Part shown: positions 4,916-54,485 of the stretch, piece after piece
Numbering within the stretch: position 1 is the first letter of the stretch
Layout: every line of letters begins with the position of its first letter
Origin: Eledone cirrhosa
Taxonomy: Eukaryota
Direction: 5' to 3'
Length of the DNA stretch: 64,000 bases
Assembly: GCA_964016885.1 (NCBI GenBank)
Contig: OZ024746.1
Location: 82,150,001-82,214,000 of the forward strand
Made by a program: the position numbers and the translations under genes
The notes under the pieces: generated by a model
Seen by the model: the letters and a program-made list of their open reading frames with translations, nothing else
What the model was told of the DNA's origin: nothing
Database searches by the model: none

Positions 4916-5398
4916 TTTCATTGTCTTGACTTTATAAATTTAAAAGTAGATTGGACAGCAACACAGACAAGCATTTATATATACATGTATGCATACATAC
5001 AGACACATACAGACACACGCGCACACACACGCGCACACAGACACGCACACAGACATATATATATATATATATATATATATATATATATATATACATATAT
5101 ATATATATATACATATATACATATATATATATATATATATATATATATATATATATATATATATATATATATATATATATATATATATATATATATATAT
5201 ATATATATATATATATATATATATATATATATATATATATATATATATATATATATATATTAGAAAGTGAGGTATTTTTTACAAAATGAAAAATAACCGA
5301 GGTGTCCTACACGAGTGAAAGTATAAAGAAAAAAAGGATGAAATCGAAAATGCAACTGGAGTCTTATTTTTTTTTTAAATATATATATTTATTTGGTT

Positions 5399-5436
5399 CC
5401 TTTACCGGTTTCGCAGTTCTTCTGCTTTTTAAAAGG
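5399..5436 (-). ncRNA. Minimal type I hammerhead-like motif with variant core, in a PLE-like fragment
   Basis: rc: cctt-TTAAAAA-gcag(aagaa)ctgc-GAAA-ccgg-TA-aagg; stems I and II pair; stem III is a palindromic tetramer. Confidence 0.6.
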
Positions 5437-5529
5437 TGAGTTGAGATGGAGGGTCTGTGGTTTTTCTCACATCTCTCTCTCTCTCTCTCTCTCTCTCTCT
5501 CTACATATATATATATATATATATATATT

Positions 5530-5845
5530 TAACAAAATAGAGGTGTAACACACGAGTTGTGATATATTAGTAAAAGGAAAAAGAAAAGAAAATGCTGACA
5601 AATTTTTCCCAGTGAAAAATAGTTTAATTAGGAATAAGTATAAATTAGTAATAAGTATTGGTTAGTATTAAGGTTTAGTTTTAAGTATTTACCGGTTGCG
5701 CATTTCTAATGCTTTTCAAAAATAATTTTGAGATAGAGCGCTCGTGTAACCAATACTTATTACTAATTTATACTTATTCCTAATTAAACTATTTTTCACT
5801 GGGAAAAATTTGTCAGCATTTTCTTTTCCTTTTACTAATATATAT
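5530..5845 (-). mobile_element. PLE-like non-coding element with ~100-bp inverted arms and degenerate HHR (5686-5724)
   Basis: Arms 5562-5664 and 5747-5843 are reverse complements; rc HHR tattt-TTGAAAA-gcatt(aga)aatgc-GCAA-ccgg-TA-aata; (TA)n on both sides. Confidence 0.65.
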
Positions 5846-5859
5846 ATAGAGAGAGAGAA

Positions 5860-6037
5860 GAGTTTCTACAGGACTAGGACTGTTTCATTCGTGAGAAATC
5901 ATAGCTCCCTGATGATTTCTCACGAATGAAACAGTTCTAGTCCTGTAGAAGCTCAACTATATTAAAACTTTTATACTCTACAATGTATTGACTACCTTAC
6001 TTACTGTGGTTACCTCCGATTCAACCCAGAATAACTT
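5860..6037 (+). mobile_element. HHR fold-back element, family A (HHR 5903-5953)
   Basis: agctcc-CTGATGA-t.ttc(tcac)gaa.t-GAAA-cag(ttctagtc)ctg-TA-gaagct, preceded by its own inverted copy; homologous to 12746-12946; ends in (TA)n. Confidence 0.8.
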
Positions 6038-51400: not shown

Positions 51401-53034
51401 GGCTCCTTCATTGACTCCTGTGTATATGAAGCAAATAAAATTAACATAATTTAAGCTCGGTTACTCCTTCGCCCACTTTAATAAAGTACCAATCAAGTAC
51501 TCGGATGAATTCTTATGACTTTCACCCTCTTCTTCATTTTCTCAGAATCAGCCATGCTGCGTTGAGAGAAAACTAGGGATTAGCAACATTTTCTCGTCTA
51601 GCATACTTCAAATAACATCCAAAGATGAAAGGAAGAAAGTAAAGTAAAGTCAATACGGATAGGATTAAAATTCAGTTAAAGAGCAATATAACATAACTTA
51701 ATTACGCAATACATTTAATACTATTCATTCTGCGTTGTATCCACTACCCTTTTATAAACTGTAATAGTTGCCTAATATTGAACTTCCACTATCCATCCTT
51801 AGTTAATGAAGTGTTAAATGCACAAGAATTGTTAGGGATTTTAATGAGATTAAATGAATGCCTCACGAGCATTTAGTCTTTAATTGATTGAAAATTTTCT
51901 AGTGTTACTTTTTAATTTCATTTTGGTGAGTTTTCTATCAGCTCCTAAGTTGTTTCTGTGATTTATTTCGAGTTTCTTGTTTGTTCTGAATTGGCTAAGA
52001 TATCCCAAGCCGTTCATTTCTTTGAATTTTTTAGTTTTCTTTTTTTTTTATTTTTGTATTTTCTCGTTGATTTTTCACGCATAAAATCAAGTCAGTCCTT
52101 TTAATAATAAATGGTTTCTCATTCACTTACAAGAACTGAATAAATTATTCTAGTCCGAATATTGCCAATTTAATTTTACATTTAATCTATAAAGAATCAT
52201 CAAATTCTCTCGTTTATCAAAACCTATGTTTATTAGATCTCTTTTATATCTACTTTAGTGATTTTAATACCCCTTTGTTTAAGCCCTTTTTTGTAGGAAC
52301 CCACAAATGTATGGCGTAAAAGTCGCCGGTAAAACGGAAAGCAATATGGATAAATAACCAAATATTCTGTCGTCGTTCTTGTTTTTATTGTAAAACTAAA
52401 GTGAGTAAAATTAAATAGAAAACCGTATTTTAACGTCTACATTCATGCTTATAAACCGACCGACAGACACACGCATACAGACAAACAGACAGACCGACAA
52501 ACAGACAGGCAGGCTGACACACTGACAAGCATAAAAAATAGATATGTACATTGATAAAAGAGAAAAAAAATCAGTGTATGTGTGAGAGAGGGAGAAACAG
52601 AAGGAGAAACAGTGAGACAAAAATAGAATAAGAGTGGGAGAGAGAATCTGTGTGTGTGTGTGAGAGGGGGGGGGGGGGGGGTAACAAAACAAAATACACA
52701 GATATTTTGATGTCCTATTTTATGCGTTTCTTCTCTCTTCTTTTCACACCCCATTAGAACATTTAGTATTTCTACATCTTTATCTTTTTCATCCTGATTT
52801 ACTTGTAAATACGCTGCTCTTAGATTATTCTGGGATGGATCAGGATTTTTTTAGCTAAATTTTATAACCATTCGGTATGAAATTATTATTATATAGAATT
52901 TAACAATACTCATTGAAATTCCGTGGTTATTTTGAAAACTATAAGATTAATGAGAATACATAATTTCTTTTGAAAATCTATTTTTTTCTGAAGTATTTGA
53001 TTCGAGATATGATGCAAAGTCCACATGGGTATTG

Positions 53035-53299
53035 ATAATTGTTTCTACTTTAGGCACAAGGCCAGCAATTATCCCAGTGCATTACTGGTACTTTATTTCA
53101 TCGACCCCGTAAGGATGAAAGGCAAAGTCAACCTCGGCGGGATTTGAACTTAGATCGTAAAGGGACGTAACTATGCTGGAAAGCATGGCGTCCGCCGCTC
53201 TACCGATACTGCCAATCCGCCGCTCTACCGATACTGCCAATCCGCCGCTCTACCGATACTGCCAATCCGCCGCTCTACCGATACTGCCAATCCGCCGCT
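53035..53299 (-). mobile_element. Young SINE with a 25-bp head segment tandemly repeated ~4x
   Basis: Reverse complement of the 3844-4037 family; unit ccgccgctctaccgatactgccaat at 53192-53299. Confidence 0.85.
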
Positions 53300-54088
53300 A
53301 GTGATAATGGTACACTATTAGGATAGAACATTTTTAAAAAAAACTCTTAAACGCTATTATCTATAATTTTCATCGTTACATCAAGTTTTATAAAGAATTG
53401 CATGCAATTTTCTATCTCTTGAACTTGTTACTGAATGTTAAAATGTTCTACTATATATTCTATTTCACTGCATAGTTAAGCATGTTAATAGCATATCACT
53501 CCAGCATCTGTCGGACAAGCAGAAAAATATTATAGCTATGGATAGCAAGTGTTATGTGTAAAATGTGCAAGTATGAATAGGTAACTAATTAGTTTCAGAG
53601 AAATATATGATTATTCCTACATTTGTCAATTTACGTTCATACAGTGACCAACGTACATTTCTCCAATATTGACGCTGATTAAACAATTTCTTTTCATTCC
53701 TATTCTTTCTGGGGGAGAGGGGGGGGGGGTATATATATATATATATATAGCATTAGTTACACTTCTCTAATAAGAACCACGCAATTATACGTAATCATGG
53801 CTCCTGTTTGTCTGTTTGACACGGTCATTTATATATTGAACTAAAGACAACATTTTCCTGATGCTTCATCACGTTCCATTTTTTCCAAGCAGCAAGTTGT
53901 TGTTGTTTTTGTTGTTTAATTCCATGCCATCTCTGATCGAGCAGACCTACGATTGACGTAACATTTCTGTCTTTTTTCGAATTTGTAGTTAACCAAAGAC
54001 CACATAATCCAGTATATATATATATATATATATATATATATATATATATATATATATACCTCGAGAACGTAACCTTATTATGCAAGAA

Positions 54089-54163
54089 GCTGTCTGATGA
54101 GATCATGGCACTGGTTCGGAGGAATTGCGTGGCCACTGTCGTCATTGAAATATGTATTACAGC
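54089..54163 (+). ncRNA. Type I hammerhead ribozyme, family F (long stem II)
   Basis: gctgt-CTGATGA-gatcatggcactggtt...ggccactgtcgtcatt-GAAA-tatgta-TT-acagc between (TA)n and (TG)n. Confidence 0.75.
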
Positions 54164-54485
54164 CTTATCAATAAAGGACTTTAACATCTGAAACTACTTT
54201 ACTCATTTTCTTATTCTATATGTATGTATGTATATGTGTGTGTGTGTGTGTGTGTGTGTGTGTGTGTGTGTGTGTGTGTGTGTGTGTGTGTGTGTGTGTG
54301 TGTGTGTGTGTGTGTGTGTGTGTGTGTGTGTGTGTGTGTGTGTATATATTCTGTCTTTTTCGAATTTGTAGTTAACTCAAGATCACATTGTAGTTAACCC
54401 ATGACCACCCCTCCGAAGTAAGGCCTTCTCTATTGAGACCACCGGGGCCGCGGGGCAGCCAGCGCGTGGGCCCCCATTTGCTCAT

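Follow-up and report, generated by a model that had tools for sequence, protein, structure and literature searches.

Hammerhead-bearing repeats in (TA)n tracts of Eledone cirrhosa as probable truncated 3' ends of Penelope-like elements

The window analysed here is a stretch of 64,000 nucleotides of the Eledone cirrhosa genome (assembly GCA_964016885.1, 3.0 Gb; contig OZ024746.1, positions 82,150,001 to 82,214,000 of the forward strand), microsatellite-rich and with a GC content of 34.5%. Many short repeats with the fold, or part of the fold, of a type I hammerhead ribozyme are scattered through it, and the question raised by this locus is what they are. The original prediction took them for short non-coding units of 80-500 bp that depend on Penelope-like elements (PLEs). 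The units are very probably 5'-truncated 3' ends (pseudo-long terminal repeats, made of hammerhead and tail) of PLEs that target TA tracts; of their families, five are linked to reading frames of the Hydra clade of PLEs, one is likely Hydra through a sister family, one is Neptune-type, and one is non-coding and likely mobilised in trans.

Reading frames behind the hammerhead ends

The hammerhead sites of the window sort into eight families, A to H. About seven sequence-unrelated families had been proposed; that there are several stands, although A and B are related, forming one clan in which stem I and core are identical. Searches of the same genome with each family gave 457 to 3057 first-look candidates per family, of which 40 were scored, and long 5' extensions were followed; loci with L numbers are such further copies elsewhere in the same genome. 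The longer copies extend through a 3' untranslated region (UTR) of 0.2-1.9 kb into frames for a reverse transcriptase (RT) and a GIY-YIG endonuclease (EN). For family B, about 0.9 kb of UTR is followed by a C-terminal GIY-YIG frame and RT (L022, L031, L032, L033), while the EN frame ends about 1.65 kb upstream of the core at four family A loci (L229-L232) and the EN C-terminus lies about 1.9 kb upstream at three family C loci (L338, L339, L357). For family D, L236 holds a partial tandem in full (3' half of a hammerhead at 2747, open reading frame (ORF), broken, at 2920-5057, hammerhead at 5244) and L235 a 420-aa open stretch, the ORF link being found in these two loci and others. A 474-aa Hydra frame lies 1.5 kb upstream of family F in L300, with UTR stretches common to three more loci, and a 729-aa RT/GIY-YIG frame lies 1.5 kb upstream of family G in L299, with a further ORF link in L298. 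Finally, a Hydra element in L244 ends in E2, a sister of family E that matches the window's E copies at 86-92% and has a full U3:A8 hammerhead. The predicted connection with PLEs is thus borne out by direct links to RT/GIY-YIG frames in six families, and the same ORF links refute the idea of short, non-coding, PLE-dependent units for A, B, C, D, F and G.

The clade assignments follow the motifs in these frames. The Hydra motifs CxCX5C, CxxC-E and N...CxH are present as a full set in A, B, D and F, DKT is present in A, B and D, and CCHH is absent; for family C, the linker motif is found in L301 and the C-terminal motifs in the sister copy L119. These motifs agree by eye with the published supplementary alignment of Craig et al. 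(PMC8557442). Pfam gave no family match for any of five Hydra frames. The family G frame has DKG, a CX4CxxC linker and a C-terminal EN, with CCHH read from the alignment; it matches Pfam RVT_1 with an E value of 1.8e-6, just under the curated cut-off. Families A, B, C, D and F are assigned to the Hydra clade by a direct ORF link, with RT, C-terminal EN and hammerhead end in collinear order. Family E is likely to belong there through its sister E2, and family G would be a Neptune-type PLE, the split between Neptune and Nematis resting on motifs.

Several points weigh against reading the units as PLE 3' ends. A directed search for family E found neither a full-length copy nor an E 5' core at any of nine distinct loci, and since no full-length copy was found, its Hydra assignment rests on E2. 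The link of family F rests on a single ORF-bearing locus (L300), the sister subfamilies at 5686, 5903 and 11792 are placed by similarity, and most of the ORFs seen are frameshifted. The clade calls are made from motifs. The family D UTR exists in a short (0.19 kb) and a long (~0.94 kb) form, and no ORF was seen in some long non-coding D copies (L237, L238), so that non-autonomous derivatives may exist inside families counted here as autonomous. The case as a whole is built from sequence; present activity and cleavage are predictions.

The non-autonomous reading holds for family H only, and there with a larger unit than proposed. When the tail-head junction of family H was used as the query, 40 scored candidates matched and 12 loci were fetched; at all 12, the tail runs head-to-tail into the same non-coding body of ~1.4 kb, and several loci reach a second hammerhead 1.35-1.6 kb further on. 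The longest stop-to-stop frame of the unit is 97 aa, and tblastn with eight PLE protein pieces against three H units returned nothing below E 0.6. Because H has stem III in common with family A and its tail motif in common with the Hydra families, a Hydra element would be its likely helper. Family H is likely non-autonomous and mobilised in trans.

Might the other short units likewise be independent non-autonomous retrozymes, of 100-500 nt, cut, circularised and copied in trans? The head-to-tail, non-coding organization of family H speaks for it, as do true short tandem arrays of other hammerhead families elsewhere in the genome; same-strand tandems of less than 1 kb hold 17 of 116 sampled hammerhead hits. 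We nevertheless consider this very improbable, since RT/EN frames are reached directly from six of the eight families and from a seventh via its sister, and since no hammerhead copy of the 64-kb window is arranged in tandem. The arrays themselves (L260 636-2274, L256 6638-7694 and L249 6464-6986, all same-strand with a period of ~520-590 bp) are better retrozyme candidates than any unit of the window. A further locus, L311 (914-1086), has the family H core segment five times at 43-nt spacing.

Hammerhead folds, cores and selection

The window was scanned with a descriptor of the type I hammerhead with canonical core (CUGANGA...GAAA...UH), with 40 local dinucleotide shuffles as control. Five complete canonical folds are found, with cores at 11800+, 12527+, 12808-, 31315+ and 54094+, versus a mean of 0.025 and a maximum of 1 in the shuffles. 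A relaxed core adds 19439-, 19548+ and 36769+, bringing the total to 8 against 0.5 in shuffles; as the relaxed cores were picked after the window had been seen, the canonical count is the only clean test. The original prediction had listed 16 full or partial folds. Hammerhead-family sequence is indeed present at all 16 coordinates, but only five are complete canonical type I folds. Those at 5903 and 12371 are complete except for one stem I mismatch each, and 36763 (core CAGAAGA) and 19615 are folds with altered cores, the actual cores of the latter being 19548+ (CCGTTGA) and 19439- (CCGCCGA), about 60 nt upstream of the GAAA first pointed to. The copies at 5399 (core TTAAAAA) and 5686 (GCAA replacing GAAA) are broken members of a U3:A8 family, and those at 12110, 14125, 16672 and 34034 are 3' halves without the hammerhead 5' half. 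Two candidate cores were rejected: CTGAAGA at 31590, which is a product of the inversion junction and lacks stem I, and CTGATCA at ~19605, considered for family F, which also lacks stem I. A sister subfamily of F has a canonical core in the register of 19548.

The features are listed below by window position and strand, with the main basis, where one is given, in brackets.

5261..5474 (-): family G 3' end (Neptune-type PLE), broken core TTAAAAA, palindromic stem III (97% to the 3' end of L299)
5530..5850 (-): G-like sister subfamily with GCAA for GAAA; long arm 5530-5750 (-), inverted piece ~5753-5850 (+) (88% over 34 nt to G)
5856..6036 (+): sister subfamily of family C; inverted short arm 5856-5890, long arm 5903-6036, core 5909, one stem I mismatch (82-83% to the C reference)
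11754..11906 (+): 3' end of an A-clan sister subfamily, complete canonical hammerhead, core 11800 (descriptor; 86% to family A)
12035..12292 (+): family B (Hydra clade); inverted piece 12035-12094, long arm 12110-12292 with tail, truncated inside the core (95-99% to L022/L032)
12322..12518 (-): family A (Hydra clade) short arm, core 12428, one stem I mismatch (96% to family A)
12514..12714 (+): family A long arm with tail, complete canonical hammerhead, core 12527 (descriptor)
12746..12814 (-): family C (Hydra clade) short arm, complete canonical hammerhead, core 12808 (descriptor)
12814..12947 (+): family C long arm with tail, starting at the junction inside stem I
13991..14167 (-): older family D copy; long arm 13991-14124 (-), short arm 14126-14167 (+), both without 5' core (87-93% to L236)
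16580..16720 (-): family E long arm, hammerhead 3' half only, truncated in stem II (86-88% to sister E2 in L244)
19201..19462 (-): long arm of family F (Hydra clade) with tail, the core at 19439 altered to CCGCCGA (94% to L300)
19524..19685 (+): short arm of family F, the core at 19548 altered to CCGTTGA (relaxed descriptor)
31249..31407 (+): family B short-end copy, complete canonical hammerhead, core 31315 (descriptor)
31434..31658 (-): family D (Hydra clade) inverted pair; long arm 31434-31593 (-), short arm 31587-31658 (+), the CTGAAGA at 31589 being the junction product (94-99% to D)
34020..34162 (+): family E inverted pair; short arm 34020-34080 (-), long-arm tail 34082-34162 (+), without 5' core and with GAAA mutated
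36764..36838 (+): short-end copy of family D, folding completely, with CAGAAGA at 36769, the core fixed in this family (relaxed descriptor)
54059..54224 (+): family H 3' end, complete canonical hammerhead, core 54094, at the end of a non-coding 1.4-kb head-to-tail unit (descriptor)

In addition, a short C-terminal piece of a Hydra-type endonuclease frame lies at 40104-40240 (-), adjoining a short TA run and outside the 16 sites.

It could be argued that such motifs are chance folds in AT-rich repeat DNA. No Rfam hammerhead model is among the best 150 of 156 rows for the whole window, or in two sub-regions, the scans returning only microsatellite and hairpin look-alikes, and single copies fold with modest z-scores (-0.04 to -2.9). 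The shuffles refute this explanation, however, and leave it hardly credible: a sample of 79 10-kb stretches, placed at round coordinates of the large contigs (789.8 kb), gives 77 canonical hits versus 0, 0, 1, 0 and 0 in five shuffles. Covariation, core conservation and the location at PLE 3' ends, where hammerheads are expected, speak against it as well.

Covariation was evaluated in the A/B clan. Among 139 copies picked by stems I and III, core position 7 alone varies freely. The stem covariation that had been foreseen is found in 12 hand-picked distinct sequences, where 9 of the 21 pairs change on both sides (8 of these in stem II); the stem cells are paired in 96%, and the covariation score is reached by none of 500 shuffles, although it is inflated partly by sequence relatedness and descriptor selection. 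These data suggest that selection acts on the A/B-clan ribozyme.

Cores differ among the families. They are canonical in A, B, C and H and of the U3:A8 kind in G and E2, family G having TTGAAAA in 28 of 42 copies and TTAAAAA in the other 14. U3:A8 is a known natural covariation, reported for the Cercyon elements of Schistosoma (PMC4209133). The core of family D is CAGAAGA (U4A) in 48 of 53 copies and canonical in none, while that of family F is CCGTCGA (U4C plus A6U) in 27/48 pattern matches (12 of them unrelated sequence), a canonical core occurring in only 2 copies of this lineage, both of the sister subfamily. Changes at A6 of the hammerhead core are reported to lower activity. Given that D copies are up to 99-100% identical, a family with a predicted weak ribozyme appears to have been amplified recently, which agrees with the dispensability of cleavage in vitro (Frangieh et al., PMC11167929). 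D and F have spread with altered cores, and the ribozyme is probably dispensable for their spread. As for stem III, the expected palindrome is present, in bare form, in five families (A, B, F, G, H), while C, D and E have a hairpin; PLE hammerheads have been described as cleaving as dimers.

Insertion anatomy at TA tracts

Arms were sampled from the eight families; E2 was excluded because it overlaps E, and diverged copies whose alignment stops early were scored as misses. A run of (TA)4 or longer lies within 8 nt of the 3' end in 111 of 162 arms, compared with 14/162 for the 5' end and 597 of 18,395 random positions (3.2%). Similarly, (TA)5 or longer lies within 200 nt downstream of 56 of the 76 canonical hits versus a background of 11.6%. 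TA enrichment is therefore upheld, and the proposal that the units are bounded by TA tracts holds at their 3' ends but not at their 5' ends. The TA tracts that touch a PLE 3' end are also longer (median 12 versus 8 units; 101 versus 1410 tracts, p 3e-7). This is compatible with a lengthening of the tract by insertion, but a preference for long tracts explains it equally well.

Two fixed 3' ends, separated by 61-96 nt, are seen in all families with sufficient copies, matching the tail signature attributed to two RT start sites (PMC11167929). Head-to-head pairs, counted among copies at least 92% identical and outside the family's own search loci, consist of one long and one short arm in 35 of 39 cases (B 11/12, D 7/8, E2 14/16, G 3/3; A, C, E, F and H gave no pairs). 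At the other end, only 4 of 132 copies begin within 3 nt of the cleavage site, and ribozyme cleavage is accordingly rejected as what sets the 5' ends. These ends cluster elsewhere: in E2, 32/44 fall within a 12-nt stretch of stem II in both arm types, in B, 10/27 at a CATATG palindrome, in G, 7/11 within 10 nt, and in D, 24/50 across the ribozyme.

The tail starts with a motif, RCTC...GAGYRC, that is common to A, B, C, D, E, F and H (e.g. 12633-12653 and 12215-12239); it lies downstream of 4 of 26 other hammerhead types and upstream of none. A strong structure in the tail is not supported, six tails folding with z of -0.2 to -1.7. The motif is a candidate recognition signal for the RT or EN.

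We propose that insertion could proceed as follows. The GIY-YIG endonuclease of the element would nick both strands of a (TA)n tract, and reverse transcription would be primed twice on the uncleaved element RNA, at the tail end and at an internal TA-rich site. Hairpins or short palindromes near the ribozyme would often make the RT stall, and the resulting pair of short cDNAs would be joined head to head. The hammerhead would probably trim tandem precursor transcripts without setting the ends of the insert. In families with a bare palindrome as stem III (A, B, F, G, H) it would act as a dimer, and in C, D and E it may act as a monomer.

Two alternatives bear on these junctions. For the retrozymes considered above, the exact recurrence of some 5' breakpoints would be in keeping, but recurring junctions are favoured by a query that contains them, and the 5' ends are otherwise variable and avoid the cleavage site. 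Another possibility, in families C and E, is that head-to-head pairs are themselves transcribed and re-copied as miniature non-autonomous elements, which would account for junctions that are identical across many chromosomes: ~20 of 30 family C loci share one junction, and E copies almost never extend past stem II. However, the search query selected for the family C junction, mirror-image and perfect-palindrome junctions also occur (L070, L071, L084, L087, L090), as expected of independent joining at an AGCT palindrome, and the tail-bearing arm obeys the long-plus-short rule. We regard such miniature pairs as improbable.

Other repeats of the window deserve mention. A palindrome at 31675-33799 is centred on a (TA)n tract (32698-32759), with outer arms of 882 nt that are 100% complementary and inner arms of 177 nt at 97%; it arose either very recently, by fold-back duplication at the tract, or as an artefact of assembly. 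Between (TACA)n tracts are stacked 3' pieces of a non-LTR (long terminal repeat) retrotransposon with a restriction-like endonuclease (20560-21442, 22215-23318, 26348-26986), showing zf-RVT at E 8e-8, a CCHC knuckle and an RPDI motif; these tracts are a second, separate microsatellite niche. We take the pieces to resemble Dong/R4. A 62-bp tandem repeat at 29502-30352 (13.7 copies, 96% matches) has a GGTTCGA box recalling the B box of transfer RNA (tRNA), and ARAGORN called no tRNA there. A dispersed repeat of ~185 bp, probably a short interspersed element, occurs at 1-62, 3848-4037, 53035-53218, 54486-54673 and 56991-57176 and as shorter pieces, and is also inserted in the UTR of the family B copy L032. 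In the literature, Dong-R4 is listed as active in octopus.

Density in the genome and known systems

From the sample described above, about one fold per 10 kb, the number of canonical folds in the genome is estimated at ~290,000 (bootstrap 197,000-398,000), a count by descriptor that does not imply PLE membership of all hits. A first 590-kb sample gave 5.8 folds per 64 kb versus 5 in the window, which is hence typical of its genome; the notion of a dense local community, or hotspot, is rejected, while that of many families at high density is upheld for the genome. Relaxed hits over all loci number 474; crude sorting gives 125 types, of which some 30 recur. Further hammerhead families with good stems and a U4C core (CCGANGA) were noted in L266, L288, L358, L380, L218 and L219.

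Published hammerhead counts, in the passages compared, are about 2,000 plus 1,300 for Schistosoma, 4,000 for coelacanth, 9,000 for Xenopus, about 5,000 for mussel and up to 120,000 for axolotl, in which 14,255 active retrozymes are reported. Our estimate exceeds these counts, although it is not a like-for-like record, since descriptors differ between studies. Somewhat tentatively, this may be the densest hammerhead load yet reported (~300,000, in 30 or more PLE families) and a natural experiment in double-primed inverted insertion, RT stalling, the spread of crippled cores and the hitch-hiking of family H via RCTC...GAGYRC. A literature search, run outside Repbase, Dfam and subscription journals, found nothing on cephalopod hammerhead density, long-plus-short pairing or the tail motif.

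The remaining interest is in the scale, in insertion statistics that are clean, and in the altered cores. Most short hammerhead repeats found in TA tracts are very probably dead ends of autonomous PLEs, as which they are best annotated, and the Hydra clade appears here as a major, recently amplified component of the genome. The two 3' ends, the pairing of arms, the breakpoints and the altered cores all bear on the open question of what purpose the PLE hammerhead serves, and near-intact D, A and G elements would extend the in vitro approach taken with Poseidon of Anolis carolinensis to a clade that targets microsatellites.

That work on Poseidon (Frangieh et al. 2024, PMC11167929) offers the closest likeness to the proposed insertion process, with two RT start sites giving the tail, both strands cut at AT-rich DNA, an uncleaved RNA template and ribozyme mutants that still insert. 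Poseidon is of another clade, its targets were AT-rich and microsatellite targeting was no part of the assay; long-plus-short pairing of inverted arms was not found in the passages compared. Family G resembles Neptune-type PLEs in its DKG, CX4CxxC finger, CCHH in the C-terminal EN, single long ORF and hammerhead in the 3' repeat, and differs in its U3:A8 core, as in Schistosoma Cercyon (PMC4209133). Family H has its nearest counterparts in the non-LTR retrozymes of animals (PMC7229834; preprint 10.64898/2026.07.22.740005) and in non-autonomous Chlamys elements such as MRC1 (PMC8557442), which are likewise non-coding, with a type I hammerhead, head-to-tail arrangement (for H, in copies elsewhere in the genome) and probable PLE dependence; however, H measures ~1.4 kb, whereas the size reported for retrozymes is 150-450 bp, the preprint of Li, Clavereau and Pollet going up to 972 bp, and H is dispersed, with a PLE-type tail and inverted arms. 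The seven other families are not retrozymes, and dispersed single and opposite-strand hammerheads had already been interpreted as truncated PLEs by Cervera and de la Pena (PMC7229834).

The elements had been thought probably unannotated in this lineage; an octopus element of this kind is already in print. Craig et al. 2021 (PMC8557442) describe 27 Hydra families, including Hydra-1_Obim of Octopus bimaculoides (2507 bp, in (TA)n, with a hammerhead). A 2026 repeat annotation of Octopus vulgaris (PMC13282606) counts 31 recently active Penelope-like families, its main text, as searched, not containing 'ribozyme' or 'Hydra'. With the Hydra clade as described in PMC8557442, our families share the C-terminal GIY-YIG EN with CxCX5C, CxxC and CxH and without CCHH, DKT in the RT, the type I hammerhead near the 3' end, insertion in (TA)n, partial tandems and 5' inverted copies. 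They differ in that many families are found here versus one in octopus, 3' UTRs reach 1.9 kb, tails measure 61-96 nt versus 30-40, and altered cores are fixed in D and F; moreover, by eye, none of the window's hammerheads matches the motif listed for Hydra-1_Obim. The families of this locus are new members of known PLE clades, together with one non-autonomous derivative.

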